NCBI GenBank assembly: GCA_964016885.1
Contig: CAXHJY010001399.1
Location: 62,001 to 126,000 of the forward strand
Length of the DNA stretch: 64,000 nt
Direction: 5' to 3'
From: Eledone cirrhosa
Lineage: Eukaryota
Every line of letters begins with the position of its first letter. The first letter of the stretch is position 1. Below are positions 13,232-63,119 of this stretch, in pieces. A program made the position numbers and the translations under genes. Under the pieces are notes generated by a model. It saw only the letters and a program-made list of their open reading frames with translations, was not told the DNA's origin and did not search any database.

Positions 13232-13309
13232 AATTGCCTTGTCTGACGAACGAATGCGGACGTTTCTTGTATTCGTCTTATTCGGGAAACCTCTGGTAAT
13301 GAGGTAATT
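13232..13309 (+). ncRNA. Type I hammerhead ribozyme motif
   Basis: AATTGCCTTGT-CTGACGA-stem II-GAAA-CCTCTGG-TA-ATGAGGTAATT; 11-bp stem I including GU pairs. Confidence 0.7.
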
Positions 13310-13433
13310 ATATTGTATTGTTTATTATATATATATATATATATATATATATATATATATATATATATATATATATATATATATATATATAGAGAGAGAG
13401 AGAGAGAGAGAGAGAGAGAGAGAGAGAGAGAGA

Positions 13434-13921
13434 TTTTGAGTTTATGTTGGTTGTATACCAACACCTCAGTATGCAGGCTGGAGCACTCGACGTAGTGCGC
13501 AGGTTGGTTTGGTTACTCCGGAGTAGTGTAAAATAAAGTTAAATAAAAGTCAAATGATTAAAATTTAGCTTCGTTTATTACTGCTATATATATTTCAGTG
13601 ACAGCCATCTTTGGCTGTGACCTCTTCAGGCAGTTTGAATTAGTATGGTATAGACAAGTACATATTTTGTTTAGGTGTATAATATTGTCAATACTCTGAT
13701 ATGTCCAGTTCCTTGTTGGGTTGTTATTTCTCTGAGGAACTGGAGTCATATCAGAGTATTGACAATATTATACACCTAAACAACATATGTACTTGTCTAT
13801 ACCATACTAATTCAAACTGCCTAAAGAGGTCACAGCCAAAGATGGCTGTCACTGAAATATATATAGCAGTAATAAACGAAGGTAAATTTTAATCATTTGA
13901 CTTTTATTTAACTTTATTTTA
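13434..13921 (-). mobile_element. PLE-like short element: inverted pLTR palindrome plus tail, HHR in each arm
   Basis: Arms 13529-13703 and 13747-13921; HHR at 13580-13634 (-, CTGAAGA) and 13816-13870 (+, mutated CTAAAGA); tail 13434-13528 shared with about 16755-16855; flanked by microsatellites. Confidence 0.75.
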
Positions 13922-14907
13922 TTTTATTTTATTTTATATATATATATATATATATATATATATATATATATATATATATATAATAAGGGTTGACGGACCC
14001 AGCATATTTATCAATGCCAGTACCGGTTGTATCTCAGCGCACTCCATGGACAAAGTAAGATACAATCCCAGAGTATACACAAAGTTATTTGCTTCAACAC
14101 AACACACGTAAATATATATATATGTATGTGTGTGTGTGTGTGTGTGTGTGTCTGTGTGGGTGTCTGTGTGTGTCTGTGTGTGTGTCTGTGTGTGGGTCTG
14201 TGTGTATGTGTATTTCTGTCCGAGACGTTAAAACATCCTACACTACCACCAAATATAACTGTGCAGTTGCCTCCTGTGTTTTGTTTGTTCATTTTCAATT
14301 ACACACACACACACACACACACACACACACACACACACACACACACACACACACACACACACACACATATATATATATATATATATATATATATATACAT
14401 TATATAAATATACATAATATACACACATGTATTCATATACACACATATAGACGCGCTGGAAGAGTAAATTAACTGTTAGGTTTATATGTGACTGCAGGGG
14501 GTTTGGGCGTGGGATTGCTGGGGGGTGGTTCTTTATTTGTTTTCTTTGAAAGTACAAAGCGATTGCTAGCCGCCCCTCCACACAGACCCACCCCACCACC
14601 ACCACTACCACACCACCACCACCACCGCGGAATGATTTCATCTGTGAAAAACAAAACTAAAAAAGACAGCTAAATAAACAATAGTAGATAAAATAAAATA
14701 GAATAGGATGTAAAAGAATGAAAAAAAAAGTGTTTGTTGGTATCACTACCCCCAGCGCCACCATCGGGAGATATTTGAGAAGTTGACATGACAGGGGGGG
14801 GGGGGGGGGAGGGGTCATGTTATGGTGGAATCATTGGCTTGTTAACACAGGTTAAACAAATCAGAACATTATCTTCAGAGTGAAACATTCTTCATCAGTT
14901 AGATACC

Positions 14908-16266
14908 CCAACTACTACCACCACCACCACTACTACTACTAACACCACTACTACTACTACTACCACCACTACTACTACCAACACTACTACCATTAACACC
15001 ACCAACATTACTACTACAACTACCACCACTACTACCACCACCACTACTACTACTACCACCACTACTACTACCAACACTACTACCATTAACACCACCAACA
15101 CTACTACTACAACTACCACCACTACTACTACCAACACTACTACTAACACCACCACTACTACTACTACCACCACTACTACTAGCAACACTACTACCATTAA
15201 CACCACCAACACTACTACTACAACTACCACAACTACTACCACCACCACTACTACTAACACCACCACTACTACTACTACCACCACTACTACTACAATCACT
15301 ACTACTACCCCCACTACTACTAACACCACTACTACTACTACTACCACTACTAATACTACCACAACCACTACTACCACCACTACTACTACCACTACTACTA
15401 CCAACACTACTACTACCAACACTACTACCATTAACACCACCAACACTACTACTACAACTACCACCACTACTACCACCACCACCACTACTACAACTACCAC
15501 CACTACTACCACCACCACCACTACTACTAACACCACCATTACTACTAACATCACCAACAGTACTACTACCAGTACCACCACCACTACTACTACCAACACT
15601 ACTACTACCAACACTACTACCACCACCACTACTACTACCATAACACTACTACTACTACCACTACCACCACCACTACTACTACCAACACTACTACTACTAA
15701 CACCACTACTAACACCACCACCACACCACCACCACCAGCACCAGCACCACCACCACACCACCACCACCACCACCTCATCACCACCACCACCACACCACCA
15801 CCACCACCACCACCACCACCACCACCACCACCACCACCACCACCACCACCACACCATCACCACCACCACCACACCACCACCACCACCATCACCACCACCA
15901 CCACACCACCACCACCACCACCACCACCACCACCACCACCACCACCACACCACCACCACACAACCACCACCACCACCACCACCACCACCACCACCACCAC
16001 CATCACCACACCACCACCACCACCATCACCACACAACCACCACCACCACCACCACCACCACCACCACCACCACCACCACCACCACACCACCACACCATCA
16101 CCACACCACCACCACCACACCACACCACCACACCATCACCACACAACCACCACCACCACCACCATCACCACCACCACACCACCACCACCACCACACCACC
16201 ACCACCACCACCACCACACCACCACACAACCACCACCACCATCACCACCACCACCACCACACCACC
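14908..16266. repeat. Compound (ACT)n/(ACC)n trinucleotide microsatellite
   Basis: Direct inspection; ACT/ACC mixture shifting to mainly ACC. Confidence 0.95.
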
Positions 16267-16446
16267 AAGTATTATACTGTAGTCAGCTCTCCTCGGGTCT
16301 GGCAACTCGATCCCTTCTCGCTTTACTAGGCCGACTTTTTGTTTGTAAAACTTTCTGACAAAGAAACACAGACGCCTTCGTACACACACACACACACACA
16401 CACAGACACACACACACACACACACACACACATGTTGGGTACCATC

Positions 16447-60150: not shown

Positions 60151-60197
60151 ATATGTATATATATATATATATATATATATATATATAATAACACACA

Positions 60198-60682
60198 TCT
60201 ATATATATAAAGTTGTAGTTCCTGTCTGTTTGTTTGTTGTTCACGAACACCTCCTATGGTTTTGCAGATAGACCACCATAACCATATATATTCTAGGGTA
60301 CTTAGATAAGTATATTTCATTTTAATCAAAGGGTTCCCGGAGGCACAAACCCCCACTGAAGATGTTTTCCCTTCGATTTATATGAAATTTAAACCATAGG
60401 TAAATGAGAGGATATGATGCCTATTCACAAAAGTTTTGAATTGATATTTTGAAAAAAATTATTTACAAGAAATAAAATAAGAATAAAATTTAATAACGTA
60501 ATTTTGATTTGATATATTACAAAAAATAATGTTTTCCAATTTTTCATGCATTACATTTTACATTGTGTAATATTGAAATGCAGAGTTTTTCTCCGTAAAT
60601 TATATCACTGATTTAAAATCAATCACCATTTTCTTACAAGAGCAATGTGTGAAACGCAGCAAGGCGCGGGTAATTCGGCTAG
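60198..60682 (+). mobile_element. Non-autonomous Helitron
   Basis: A-TC start; GC-rich subterminal segment and CTAG-T end. Confidence 0.65.
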
Positions 60683-60730
60683 TATATATATATATATATA
60701 TATATATATATATATATATATATATATATA

Positions 60731-60999
60731 CAGTATTTTCCGTTGTGTTGTAATATAAATATTACACACAGTAGATTATCAGCTCACGTAGAGTTTGCTC
60801 GACGGTTCCAGTTGTAGTTCCAAAAGTAATCCGGAGAAAAATAGAAAGATTTGAATGGATACAGTTTAGTTGAAAGGAATTTATTGACACGTGTTTCTAT
60901 AACAGTTACATAACCTATGTTTTAGGTTATGTAACTGTTATAGAAACACGTGTCAATAAATTCCTTTCAACTAAACTGTATCCATTCAAATCTTTCTAT
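60731..60999. repeat. Hairpin (77-bp arms) plus tail in (TA)n
   Basis: 60841-60917 / 60923-60999 with GAAA-CACGTG-TC; tail 60731-60840. Confidence 0.8.
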
Positions 61000-63119
61000 A
61001 TATATATATATATATATATATATATATTATATATATATGTAAATACATATATATCTATATGTATATATCTATAGATGTATATATATATATAACGAGGGGG
61101 CAGCCATCATCATATATATATATATATGAAATATATATCATTTTTCACATTGTGGAGAGGTTAAACAGAGCTGAAAATAGAGTAATTTAATATAATTATC
61201 AAAACAAGGCTATGTAGCAATCATTCTGAAATAGATGTATATATATATATATGTATATGTATATATATATATGTGTATGTATGTGTATGTATCAATATAC
61301 ATGTATGTATATGTATGTGTATGTATGTACTTATACACATGTATGTACGTATGTATGTATATGTATGTATACGTATGTATGTATATGTATGTATGTATAT
61401 GCATTTATGTATACGTATGAATGTATATGTATGTGTATGTATATTTATGTATGTGTGTATATGTATGTATGTATACGTATGTATATATATGTATGTATGT
61501 ATACGTATGTATGTACATGTATGTATGTATGTATGTATATGTATGTATGTATATGTATGTGTGCATGTATATGTATATATATGTATATATAAGTATGTAT
61601 ATGCATGTATATGTATGTATGTTTAGCTACATGTATGTATGAATGTAATGTATATGTATGTATATACATATATATATATGTATATATATACGTATGTATA
61701 TATGCATGTATTTACACATATATATGTATATACATATATATATATATAAATATATGTATATATATGTATATATATATGTATATATACGTATGAATATATG
61801 CATGTATTTACACACATATATATATATATACATATATATATGTATATACATATATAAATAAAAAAATATGTATATATATGTATATATATATGTATATACA
61901 TATATATATATGTATATATATATATGTATATATATATCTATGTATATAAAATACAATATGTTGAAAAGGTAACACACTAGAGAGAGATAGTGCGCCATCC
62001 TTGGAACACATTATTGATAGGGAATAACGAGAGTCTATGACTCCGTTAATTTATATATGTATATATATATATGTATATACATATATATAAGAATATATGT
62101 ATATATATTTATATATATATATATTTATGTGTGTGCGTGTGCGTCTGTATGTATATTTATATGTATAAGTCTATATATGTATATATATATATATGCATAT
62201 ATACATGTATATATATGTATATATGTGTATTATTATCACCTAGAAACGATCGTATAGCACTGAAATATATTTCTAAAGACTTGAATTTTTATTTCATTCT
62301 TTTAACTTATATATGTATATATATATATATGTATATATATATATATATATATATATATATATATATGTATATATAAATTACATACATATATGTATATATG
62401 TATATATACATATATGTATGTAATATATACATATATACATTTAACCTTAGATAGAAGTTATCCAAAGCTCTATATCAAATTAACAACCTATATATTCTCT
62501 CTCTATATATATATATATATAAAACCTATATATATATATATATATATATATATATATAAAACCTATATATGTATATATATATATATTAACAACCTATATA
62601 TATATATATATATATATTAACTGTTTCTACTTTAGGCACAAGGCCAGCAATTACCCAGTGTATTACTGGTACTTTATTTTATCGACCCTGTAAGGATGAA
62701 AGGCAAAGTCAACCTCGGCGGGATTTGAACTCAGATCGTAAAGGGACGTAACTATGCTGGAAAGCATGGCTGCCGACACTCTACCGATACTGCCAATCCA
62801 CCGCCCTATATATATATATATATATATATTAACAACATATATATATATGTATATATTAACAACCTATATATATATATATATATATTGAAAAATCACTTTC
62901 GGAAATAATTTCTGAAGACGGCATATATATGAGTTGGTATGTATATTTAATTTTGATAGTTTGTATAATTTTGTACATAGATCTGTTAAATATGCATGCC
63001 AATTCTAACACATATATATCCCAGAAACGATCGTTAAATAATGAACTTTTTTTGTTTAATATAAGGAACTGTTTCATTGTTTTATTCATTATTTTTTTAA
63101 ATATTTTATATATATATAT

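Follow-up and report, generated by a model that had tools for sequence, protein, structure and literature searches.

A 64,000-nt stretch of the Eledone cirrhosa genome (hereafter the window) carries numerous hammerhead ribozymes (HHRs), many of them within short insertions of Penelope-like elements (PLEs; Table 1). The first-pass annotation had listed 31 positions, described as about 30 minimal type I motifs, and the HHR core (a 7-mer, GAAA and stem III) was present at 31/31. For the well-formed motifs, the listed coordinate falls on the left boundary of the span from stem I to stem I, or no more than 3 nt from it.

Table 1. HHRs and HHR-bearing insertions in the window (positions as in the window).
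Feature	Position	Strand	Remarks
HHR, family D	13232..13309	+	pLTR of PLE; EN C-terminus ~1.2-1.3 kb upstream in L159, L172
Family A head-to-head insertion	13529..13922	.	pLTR of Hydra-type PLE (L132); HHRs 13580-13634(-) intact, 13816-13870(+) with G5A
HHR, diverged family D relative	16447..16512	+	
Decayed family A-like HHR (G12A)	16908..16960	-	absent from first-pass list
HHR, diverged family A relative	17078..17134	+	
Decayed HHR	31191..31235	+	core and palindromic stem III retained, stem I unpaired
Family C solo pLTR	32152..32369	+	HHR 32163-32313, 116-nt stem II domain
Family I imperfect palindrome	39887..40369	.	U3-A8 HHR-like motif, core at 40139(-)
HHR, B-like family	40834..40899	-	23 related copies in fetched loci
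Family A solo pLTR	40990..41152	-	HHR 41066-41120
Family F head-to-head insertion	42063..42536	.	pLTR of CCHH-type GIY-YIG PLE (L192); HHRs 42249-42287(-), 42378-42416(+)
HHR-like motif, family G	43198..43229	+	2-bp stem I
Family P palindromic insertion	43368..43547	.	between (TA)n; core at 43498(+), weak stem II
Decayed copy, U4C-variant HHR family J	46581..46623	-	
Family E insertion	47280..47981	.	620-nt arm, HHR 47320-47436(-); inverted tail-only arm 47899-47981; Hydra-type EN ~1 kb upstream in other copies
Family K pLTR and tail	48014..48186	-	fully paired U4A-variant HHR 48122-48172
HHR, B-like family	48931..48998	-	
Family C head-to-head insertion	49116..49676	.	pLTR of 830-aa Hydra-type PLE (L031); HHRs 49318-49465(-), 49464-49611(+); 424-bp perfect palindrome core; one long and one short 3′ end
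HHR, diverged family A relative	50175..50230	+	
Family H retrozyme insertion	53245..54260	+	1.7 units of 593-bp ORF-less repeat between (TA)n tracts; terminates at long start site
Family H U3-A8 HHRs	53340-53429, 53933-54022	+	predicted cleavage after 53424, 54017
Family B head-to-head insertion	54311..55779	.	pLTR and 3′ UTR of 821-aa Hydra-type PLE (L133); HHRs 54437-54507(-), 55671-55741(+)
Family K insertion	58202..58421	-	U4A core at 58356, stem I broken
HHR, B-like family	58467..58529	+	12-bp stem I
Decayed HHR-like motif (U16.1C)	59116..59159	+	
HHR, family M	59339..59423	+	43 matches scored, identity 92-96%
Family N palindromic insertion	59733..60094	.	pLTR of CCHH-type PLE (L104); HHR 59899-59939(+), 3-bp stem I
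Family C solo pLTR	62905..63109	+	HHR 62908-63039

Could these motifs be chance matches in AT-rich, low-complexity DNA? Stems are AT-rich in several of them, and the CTGANGA core alone, found 53 times, would be expected about 19 times at random (19.4 in shuffles). However, a strict scan identified 9 HHRs in the window against a mean of 0.125 (maximum 2) in 40 local dinucleotide shuffles (200-nt blocks), and a relaxed scan (stem II by RNAfold; C3-G8, U3-A8 and U4C cores; stem I of at least 3 bp; 60 shuffles) identified 21 against 0.35 (maximum 2), all coinciding with sites among the 31. Stem III pairs with itself in 18 of the relaxed-scan matches, against 0.03 in shuffles, and exact copies occur in thousands whereas control matches are zero. 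Pairing is also kept across families: in 40 motif groups from all fetched loci, chosen without a stem I criterion and with chance matches and mis-parses kept, pairing is found at 79% of the first five positions of stem I, against 43% (maximum 57%) in 5,000 cross-group shuffles, a percentage that is not a probability because the groups are partly related. A chance origin of the 21 relaxed-scan HHRs is thus refuted and its likelihood is practically nil, although lone decayed sites (59116, 31191) are less sure. The best 150 of 248 Rfam matches included no hammerhead family.

About 23 of the 31 sites are fully paired, three are atypical and five are decayed. The relaxed scan missed two fully paired motifs, 59339 (6-bp stem I) and the U4A variant 48122(-). 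At 43498, stem II is weak (3 bp), and re-parsing from family copies gave a 3-bp stem III with an 8-nt loop; the U3-A8 variant at 40103(-) has just two contiguous stem I pairs, and 43200 has a stem I of 2 bp. Of the decayed sites, 13816 carries G5A, 31191 has an unpaired stem I, stem I is down to 2 bp at 46579(-) (U4C family) and to 1 bp at 58311(-) (U4A family), and 59116 has U16.1C and a stem II that does not fold. The 260 nt downstream of the cleavage site include a (TA)>=5 tract at 26/31 sites, as against 40% of random positions, in agreement with the proposed targeting of (TA)n.

The proposed density of one motif per 2 kb describes the window and not the genome: a 200-kb sample, taken at even intervals along contigs C1-C3, contained 14 relaxed-scan matches (1.4 in shuffles), that is, 0.07/kb, whereas the window has 0.33/kb, approximately 4-5 times as many. 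Nevertheless, the postulated large and diverse population is borne out by the many families and by a rough extrapolation from the 200-kb sample to some 1.9e5 HHRs (range 0.9-3.3e5). The most abundant family counted, with a U4A core, has 21,952 exact cores in the genome, family F has 6,005 and family H has at least 5,987.

What elements carry these ribozymes? Eight families, namely A, B (55671), C, D, E, F, K and N, consist of the 3′ ends (pLTRs) of ORF-bearing PLEs elsewhere in the genome, which upholds the suggested PLE link; they account for 20/31 sites, a count that takes in 16447, 17075 and 50175, placed with D and A merely as diverged relatives. Nine sites lie outside these families and H (31191, 40103, 40834, 43200, 43498, 46579, the 58467/48931 group, 59116 and 59339). 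Full-length elements with the order HHR, ORF, HHR were found for C (L031, 830 aa), B (L133, 821 aa) and K (L231, one in-frame stop), and an ORF followed by a 3′ UTR and the HHR was found for A (L132, frameshifted), F (L192) and N (L104); in D and E, an EN C-terminus lies 1-1.3 kb upstream in the same orientation as the HHR. The family F ORF has a Pfam GIY-YIG match (E 7.5e-07), the Hydra-type ORFs have no significant Pfam or NCBIfam match, and the structure model of protein P0001 (mean pLDDT 83.6) has telomerase RTs as its top seven PDB matches (best E 3.3e-09). Judged by their motifs, six of the eight families would belong to the Hydra clade and two (F, N) appear Neptune/Nematis-like. Among the copies compared, window copies of the eight families are 87-100% identical to the ORF-linked pLTRs; loci from DNA searches are the best-scoring copies, that is, young and HHR-complete. 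No ORF was found in the 1.5-kb flanks of 15 family M loci.

We consider it probable (about 0.85) that most short copies are 5′-truncated or solo pLTRs of autonomous families, with the HHRs carried in the pLTRs of EN+ PLEs, and that a PLE protein acts in trans to move family H, a non-autonomous retrozyme of 591-597 nt. The first-pass description of the elements as non-coding derivatives or retrozymes is therefore right for H (2/31 sites) and wrong for the eight families. Alternatively, the short elements might mostly be independent, non-coding, SINE-like families, some of whose solo pLTRs move alone. Solo pLTRs contain a putative promoter, an HHR and sometimes a tail, and fixed-boundary solos are common in A, B, C and F; moreover, several window families lie outside the established ORF links, this description holds for H, and a second ORF-less unit, of 522 bp, exists (L222). 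We nevertheless regard this alternative as unlikely, because in eight families the same pLTR runs on into a 3′ UTR and an ORF at other loci, and inversion junctions vary between loci, as independent truncations would.

The insertions share a characteristic anatomy. Seven families have two 3′ ends each: +206/+343 in C, +101/+189 in B, +101/+199 in A, +154/+213 in F, +155/+270 in E, +70/+150 in K, and unit positions 165 and 325-335 in H. In 57/63 two-arm insertions over five families, one arm has the short end and the other the long end (C 7/8, B 14/14, A 17/17, F 3/5, H 14/17 and 2/2); none of the 63 has two alike, and in the remaining six one arm is broken or extends beyond the locus edge. At the opposite end, five families (A, B, C, F, K) have many copies that break off at a position typical of the family, where the sequence is initiator-like (A 14/27 at -120 to -129; B 12/28 at -69 to -72; C 5/26 at -7 to -9; F 10/15 at -32 to -47; K 18/46 at -8 to +5), and this position is probably the transcription start; no such hot spot was seen in 19 query-selected loci of family E. 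Among 81 fragments unselected by queries, 60 cross the cleavage site and none starts within 3 nt of it (the 30-nt limit of this count excludes short K copies that begin there, at 29 nt), and the template would therefore be uncleaved or re-ligated RNA.

These patterns suggest the following process. An internal promoter in the pLTR, such as that described previously (PMC2377424), would yield the RNA, and the RT/GIY-YIG protein would nick both (TA)n strands, as published biochemistry implies: there, both strands are cut and extended, two internal start sites are used and unprocessed RNA is the main substrate (PMC11167929). Reverse transcription then begins, as the genomic pattern shows, at two fixed internal RNA sites, 59-163 nt apart and downstream of the HHR, each used once per insertion. 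By the same pattern, both cDNAs extend towards the RNA 5′ end, on a template that spans the cleavage site, and are joined head to head, creating the palindromes. Head-to-head junctions have instead been ascribed to self-priming on an antisense template (PMC3846280).

Family H is a non-LTR retrozyme, and the sole family shown to be an ORF-less tandem element of this type: a 591-597-bp unit with a U3-A8 HHR in each. Among the first 100 genome matches, 31/31 same-strand neighbours within 10 kb are spaced 590-607 bp apart, 12/13 opposite-strand neighbours are head to head, and the arrays are dispersed over 56 clusters. The family inserts as PLEs do, into (TA)n, with two fixed 3′ start sites and head-to-head arms, and these shared fingerprints point to PLEs as the machinery that copies it; public-run contigs end in (TA)n at both start sites (53503-53504 and 53666-53669). 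In 30 loci, no family sequence was found outside the unit, and H resembles none of the autonomous elements in the fetched loci, where no partner PLE was found; consequently, it is the insertion anatomy that argues for mobilisation in trans.

How far do the ribozymes themselves contribute? The palindromic stem III forms no monomer hairpin, and its predicted self-dimerisation energies (-3.2 to -12.9 kcal/mol) make cleavage as a dimer plausible; by analogy with published relatives, the HHRs might cleave in this way or with protein help. In a preprint, 8/9 Xenopus dimers showed no cleavage (10.64898/2026.07.22.740005). The U4C core is known to have reduced activity (PMC3088659), the main text of which has 0 occurrences of U4A (Lunse et al. 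may list it), and the ribozyme of the U4A family K may be impaired.

Multi-unit arms could arise in several ways. It has already been proposed as a hypothesis, in PMC4209133 and PMC7229834, that the HHR cuts transcripts down to single units, that these are circularised by ligation and that the PLE reverse transcriptase copies the circles by rolling around them; the seamless multi-unit arms of H would be made in this manner, and the upstream pLTR of autonomous PLEs rebuilt. The two arms of the young H insertion L230 contain 4.9 and 2.7 near-identical units, which differ at just three sites and have four common variants seen in no other sampled locus; a circular template would explain this but is not proven by it. 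Tandem units within a locus are concordant at 128/137 polymorphic-site comparisons and inverted arms at 116/135, against 82 expected in each case; the 5′ ends of H are scattered, without a sharp hot spot and with none at the cleavage site, and its unit folds better than 100/100 shuffles (z -4.7). In autonomous elements, the upstream partial copy passes the hot spot (to -1191 in C, -450 in B and -174 in K) and differs from the 3′ copy by 1-2 mismatches; two ends of family C show 0.8 mismatches per 600 nt when they belong to one insertion and 6.6 when they belong to different ones. However, a long read-through transcript of a young homogeneous donor array would produce an identical pattern, nine tandem comparisons are discordant, the U4A family K also forms a partial tandem, and Naiads make tandems without canonical HHRs (PMC8557442). 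HHR mutants left insertion in vitro unchanged and the anole element yielded no reads ending at the cut site (PMC11167929), and the Xenopus dimers also weigh against this route. We therefore entertain the circle as a tentative and rather doubtful proposal.

Linear templates, either read-through multimers of a donor array or jumps of the RT from one RNA 5′ end to another RNA, have a chance only somewhat short of even; the HHR would then be a passenger or act in another step. Their use is shown by the 5′ hot spots of A, B, C, F and K, uncleaved RNA is the chief substrate in vitro (PMC11167929), and tandems also come from K and from HHR-less PLEs (PMC8557442), but pure read-through merely preserves or shortens arrays, and seamless junctions over 4.9 units would demand precise jumps. 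Satellite birth from a pLTR is discussed in the 2026 preprint, and the variants common within an array match local duplication. Such growth of H arrays after insertion, by DNA-level duplication or unequal crossover, is disfavoured and quite improbable, because the arrays are dispersed and end at two fixed sites beside (TA)n with scattered 5′ ends, and several same-variant units occur on both arms of one palindrome.

This type of element is already known, with Lunse et al. (cited in PMC6765202) reportedly describing minimal type I HHRs in the pLTRs of metazoan PLEs, and the value of our study lies in the mechanistic evidence. The HHRs resemble those of metazoan PLE pLTRs (Cervera & de la Pena 2014, PMC4209133) in their core, short stem I, long stem II, palindromic stem III and U3-A8 variant, and in occurring as many sequence families per genome, mostly as single truncated copies, with opposite-strand pairs; they differ in stem II domains of up to 116 nt and in family-wide U4C and U4A cores. 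With the Hydra clade of C-terminal EN+ PLEs (Craig et al. 2021, PMC8557442), our Hydra-type families share RW[KRT], DKT/DKA, a CxCx5C linker, the absence of CCHH, CxxC..E..N..CxH, a C-terminal GIY-YIG, HHRs and (TA)n targets, and that work also describes an inverted 5′-truncated copy with the tail at one end. There, the clade comprises few families, generally < 3 kb, with tails of 30-40 bp, whereas the families here number six or more, with units that measure 3.3, 3.7 and 6.8 kb and tails that measure 59-163 nt, and a single family reaches 21,952 exact cores. Families F and N share a Cx4CxxC linker, two cysteines between GIY and YIG and a C-terminal EN with Neptune/Nematis PLEs; from their partial ORFs, they are assigned to Neptune or Nematis jointly. 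Family H is like metazoan non-LTR retrozymes (PMC7229834; preprint 10.64898/2026.07.22.740005) in its ORF-less tandem unit with one type I HHR each; its 593-bp unit falls inside the 51-972 bp range of the preprint and is longer than the 170-400-nt circles of 2020 (PMC7229834). It differs in its PLE-type U3-A8 ribozyme, and no pLTR homologue was found here. The preprint already uses co-distribution and pLTR homology to argue that retrozymes originate from PLEs and are mobilised in trans; the evidence from insertion anatomy (two starts, one per arm, and head-to-head multi-unit arms) has no counterpart in the accessible parts of either source. Finally, Poseidon of Anolis in vitro (Frangieh et al. 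2024, PMC11167929) likewise extends both strands from two internal starts at an AT-rich target on an unprocessed template, but that study saw no difference in start site between the strands, whereas the genomic copies studied here pair strictly one of each.

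Could the hammerhead motifs of the window have arisen by chance? The window is AT-rich eukaryotic DNA, rich in (TA)n and other simple repeats, and is part of contig C1426 of a 3.0-Gb assembly. A strict scan for type I hammerhead ribozymes (HHRs) gave nine matches, against a mean of 0.125 in 40 local dinucleotide shuffles, and a relaxed scan, with stem II folded by RNAfold, found 21 where 60 shuffles averaged 0.35 (maximum two); a variant requiring four contiguous stem II pairs, which misses bulged stems, gave 11 against 1.07. The first-pass annotation, which had proposed such a shuffled control, listed 31 sites, and these proved accurate in that all 21 relaxed-scan matches are among them. 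Site-by-site parsing found about 23 of the 31 fully paired (the 21 plus 59339 and 48122, a U4A variant), 22 of them with a canonical or U3-A8 core and one further with U4A; three are atypical (40103, 43200 and 43498) and five decayed (13816, 31191, 46579, 58311 and 59116). Every motif parsed is type I, a class defined by a CUGANGA...GAAA...UH core at a three-stem junction and ends in stem I. Among the matches listed, an Rfam scan of the window gave only microsatellite-driven miRNA-like ones.

The annotation had also claimed that the stems keep their pairing while differing in sequence, and that stem III is repeatedly palindromic. Both claims hold. In 40 motif groups drawn from all fetched loci, with stem I not used as a criterion, stem I pairing was 79%, versus 43% when 5′ and 3′ strands were mixed between groups, and stem III is self-pairing in 18 of the 21 relaxed-scan matches. 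The palindromic stems III of six families form no monomer hairpin and give self-dimers of -3.2 to -12.9 kcal/mol; judged from pairing, such short stems are predicted to be suited to dimers. In families D, K, M, N and P, stem III is looped, not palindromic. In family C, sequence lying some 50 nt further downstream is also complementary to the 3′ strand of stem I and, by eye, might form a competing hairpin (49605-49665).

HHR density is 0.33 per kb in the window versus 0.07 per kb elsewhere (14 matches, with 1.4 expected by chance, in 20 evenly spaced 10-kb stretches, all from contigs C1-C3). Extrapolated from this sample, the genome-wide total is very roughly 1-3 x 10^5, in keeping with the large population previously proposed. 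A pattern search of the genome found 6,005 exact cores of family F, 5,987 of H and 21,952 of K, counted as cores and not as insertions, with 0 control matches.

Which elements carry these motifs? The annotation favoured non-coding derivatives of Penelope-like elements (PLEs) and suggested a genome-wide search for linked reverse transcriptase (RT) and GIY-YIG ORFs. Such a search, with window copies as queries, recovered ORF-bearing PLEs, and the ORF-linked families span 20 of the 31 sites, including three diverged relatives (16447, 17075 and 50175). Most motifs in the window are thus truncated ends of autonomous, coding PLEs; the non-coding description stands for family H, which has no ORF. The coding elements have the organization of EN+ PLEs: a single ORF with a telomerase-like RT plus, C-terminally, a GIY-YIG endonuclease (EN), partial-tandem pseudo-LTRs (pLTRs), an inverted 5′-truncated copy and an optional tail. 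Pfam names the endonuclease of family F alone (GIY-YIG) and leaves the other PLE ORFs unnamed. The predicted family C protein, P0001, was not named by Pfam, NCBIfam or PDB sequence searches, and its 322 homologues are mostly unnamed, many carrying PF26215 or PF28514. A telomerase-like RT is a hallmark of PLEs, and the top seven PDB matches to the predicted fold of P0001 are all telomerase RTs. Between its RT and EN, residues 494-590 are disordered (pLDDT < 50) and Asn/Thr/Lys-rich, resembling the Asn-rich inserts of rotifer Penelope (PMC3846280). The 3′ UTR of the family C element consists of TA/TG/CA microsatellite-rich sequence; this PLE spreads sequence resembling its own (TA)n target. At L131, a 2.8-kb family A triple proved to be a duplicated block of several elements and was rejected as a PLE unit.

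Features of the window and of related genome loci (L numbers), with 3′ ends measured from C3
Feature	Location	Description	3′ ends	5′ hot spot
Family A	L132	pLTR downstream of frameshifted ORF and 1-kb UTR	+101/+199	-120 to -129 (14/27)
Family B	L133	HHR, 821-aa ORF, HHR; period 3,689 bp	+101/+189	-69 to -72 (12/28)
Family C	L031	HHR, 830-aa ORF, ~3.8 kb microsatellite-rich 3′ UTR, second HHR	+206/+343	-7 to -9 (5/26)
Family C 3′ UTR	L031:4506-8350	internal repeat of ~600 nt		
Family D		1-1.3 kb downstream of EN C-terminus		
Family E		1-1.3 kb downstream of EN C-terminus	+155/+270	
Family F	L192	~390 nt downstream of GIY-YIG ORF	+154/+213	-32 to -47 (10/15)
Family K	L231	core, ORF interrupted by one stop, second core; period 3,259 bp	+70/+150	-8 to +5 (18/46)
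Family N	L104	~290 nt downstream of GIY-YIG ORF		
Family K copies	31807-31918(-), 53110-53214(+)	cut off inside ribozyme core; absent from first-pass annotation		
Palindromic element	17252-17441, 42640-42900	abundant, (TA)n-flanked, no HHR core		
Near-perfect palindromes	1-287, 60720-60999	adjoining (TA)n, no HHR		
Non-LTR retrotransposon fragments	9059-10465(-), 10888-12744(-)	broken; RVT_1 and zf-RVT matches, restriction-enzyme-like C-terminus		
LINE-like RT frame	33000-33925(+)	3′ part, behind long (TA)n tract		
Repeats of ~190 bp (probable SINE)	16566-16750, 26357-26545, 26935-27133, 39505-39688, 50285-50477, 51911-52110, 52875-53076, 55981-56127, 62615-62817	88-94% identical; head tRNA-like by eye		
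Tandem array	3893-7431	unit 61 bp		
Tandem array	19849-20485	unit 31 bp		
Tandem array	20646-21090	unit 37 bp		
Tandem array	25377-26139	unit 58 bp		
Tandem array	27278-28130	unit 118 bp		
Tandem array	38539-39372	unit 31 bp		
Second ORF-less tandem unit	L222:6358-7234	522 bp, own HHR		

Clade names here are motif-based and follow the list given in Craig et al. 2021 (PMC8557442). By these motifs, families A, B, C, E and K appear to be Hydra-type, as does D on its C-terminus alone. The Hydra-type set comprises RW[KRT], DKT, CxCx5C, absence of CCHH, and CxxC..E..N..CxH; it is complete or one regex match short in B, C and K, lacks only the last match in the frameshifted A, and was scored in the EN half only for E and at the C-terminal motif only for D. 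Families F and N resemble Neptune or Nematis in their CCHH cysteines and Cx4CxxC linker. On this motif test, the assignment of A, B, C, D, E and K to Neptune was rejected, as was that of F to Penelope/Poseidon.

The insertions share a characteristic anatomy. Downstream of the ribozyme, two 3′ ends occur in every family examined, both entering (TA)n. The window's perfect palindromes (e.g., 49253-49676) are head-to-head pairs of such copies. Among 63 two-arm insertions of families A, B, C, F and H, 57 combine one short and one long end; in the other six, one arm is broken or lies beyond the fetched stretch, and none has two alike. Were the arms to choose sites independently, like ends would be expected in about half. 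The one-short-one-long rule constrains any insertion model. The long arm frequently ends near the short start site, which would fit two enzymes on one RNA. Of the palindromes without an HHR, the one at 60720-60999 consists of family E's 3′ part and tail, and the abundant (TA)n-flanked element may represent tail arms of another PLE family.

The 5′ ends cluster at points that differ between families and lie at the ribozyme 5′ edge or upstream of it; no such hot spot was found in family E, and pile-ups at -174 in K and -450 in B were rejected as reference-edge artefacts. The hot spots, at sequences (TCATA, TCATT, ACAGTT and TTAGTT) that we take to resemble an initiator, would correspond to transcription starts. 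In support of this reading, Drosophila Penelope has an internal promoter (PMC2377424). Among 81 fragments incidentally present in loci fetched for other families, none begins 3 nt or less from the predicted cleavage site, which 60 of them span; the idea that copies start at the cleavage site thus found no support in this set.

Family H differs from these coding families in having no ORF. Its motifs at 53340 and 53933 lie in a repeat unit of 593 bp, in which the core is of the U3-A8 type and stem III holds the palindrome CUACGUAG. Because no family sequence was found outside the unit in 30 fetched loci (27 distinct), and because in the first 100 genome matches each of the 31 neighbours on the same strand and within 10 kb is 590-607 bp away, H is an ORF-less tandem element. 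With a type I HHR in each unit, it is by its sequence organization a putative non-LTR retrozyme, as Cervera and de la Pena 2020 (PMC7229834) use the term. It also carries the fingerprints of PLEs, namely (TA)n targets and two fixed 3′ ends, at positions 165 and 325-335 of the unit, with one end of each kind in 16 of 19 two-arm insertions; its 5′ ends are scattered. In contigs from public sequencing runs, loose (TA)n ends fall at both of these sites and, in three runs, there are joints going back 593 nt; the unit is present in runs of three organisms, one at low depth. No RNA run is listed among them, which has no bearing on expression. No autonomous partner or pLTR kin of H was found in the fetched loci (~0.93 Mb). 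The second ORF-less tandem unit, encountered in a random sample, has the palindrome CUAAUUAG, a short inverted 5′ piece and a (TA)n end, and has relatives in L093, L031 and L111.

How might these copies have been made? We assign a probability of about 0.85 to the reading that the motifs belong to PLEs and a retrozyme whose insertions start from two sites. Whether multi-unit H arms were copied from circular RNA is a separate matter. Variants are shared among the units of a locus (128 of 137 comparisons, versus 82 expected). At locus L230, whose two arms hold 4.9 and 2.7 units, the units have four private variants in common and three sites vary; there, a single event copied one homogeneous template repeatedly. 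A circle could provide this, but a young donor array transcribed into one long RNA would yield the pattern equally, as would precise template jumps, and we regard the circular template as a tentative suggestion, less likely than not. If rolling on circular H RNA did occur, the same step would explain the rebuilding of the upstream pLTR in autonomous PLEs.

Family K, the most abundant family counted, counts against a general circle model, since it forms a partial tandem despite its U4A core. Given the uridine turn, U4A would be expected to be impaired. Family K keeps all three stems (stem III is 4 bp); position 4 is A in 48 of the 50 copies, which were collected, some from overlapping loci, by a pattern that itself contained A4 and allowed up to three substitutions. 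Because the most abundant family counted has this core and forms a partial tandem, spread may not require cleavage. We found no mention of U4A in the main text of PMC3088659; U4C, the core of family J, is a known variant of reduced activity (PMC3088659). The U3-A8 core occurs in families H and I and in one autonomous element (L212), and such cores were reported in 2014 (PMC4209133). A more far-reaching scenario, in which the genomic copies of family H record its mechanism, seems less likely than not to us: a PLE protein dimer would make two cDNAs from two sites on one circular, HHR-processed RNA, roll several turns and join them head to head in (TA)n, while K would either have an active U4A hammerhead or spread as a PLE with a dead one.

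The RT fragments within the window were rejected as HHR-linked PLEs, as they are not PLEs and have no HHR link; for the LINE-like frame, no Pfam match was found at 1e-3. ARAGORN found no tRNA in the window, including the ~190-bp repeat family.

PLEs with minimal HHRs have been known since 2014 (PMC4209133), and a 2026 preprint (10.64898/2026.07.22.740005) describes animal retrozymes as non-autonomous PLE derivatives, arguing from co-distribution and pLTR homology and leaving the mechanism open. The PLE/retrozyme finding as first stated is therefore not new; the window provides a dense set of new members of kinds already known. Plant LTR retrozymes differ in having type III HHRs in their LTRs, whereas all motifs here are type I. 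A tail at one end with an inverted 5′ copy is known qualitatively (PMC8557442, PMC3846280); we found neither a strict one-short-one-long rule nor multi-unit identical head-to-head arms reported in a literature search with thin coverage of subscription papers and Repbase. Smaller additions are a Hydra-type expansion of such size and a U4A core across a whole family. The extension of both strands from two internal start sites described by Frangieh et al. 2024 (PMC11167929) agrees with the anatomy found here, and their finding that unprocessed RNA is the main substrate agrees with the absence of cleavage-site starts. The remaining interest is mechanistic: H is a small (593-nt), abundant and young retrozyme. 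It has ~6,000 young cores, both of its start sites are mapped, and there are candidate helper ORFs that are intact, so that it is amenable to in vitro tests.
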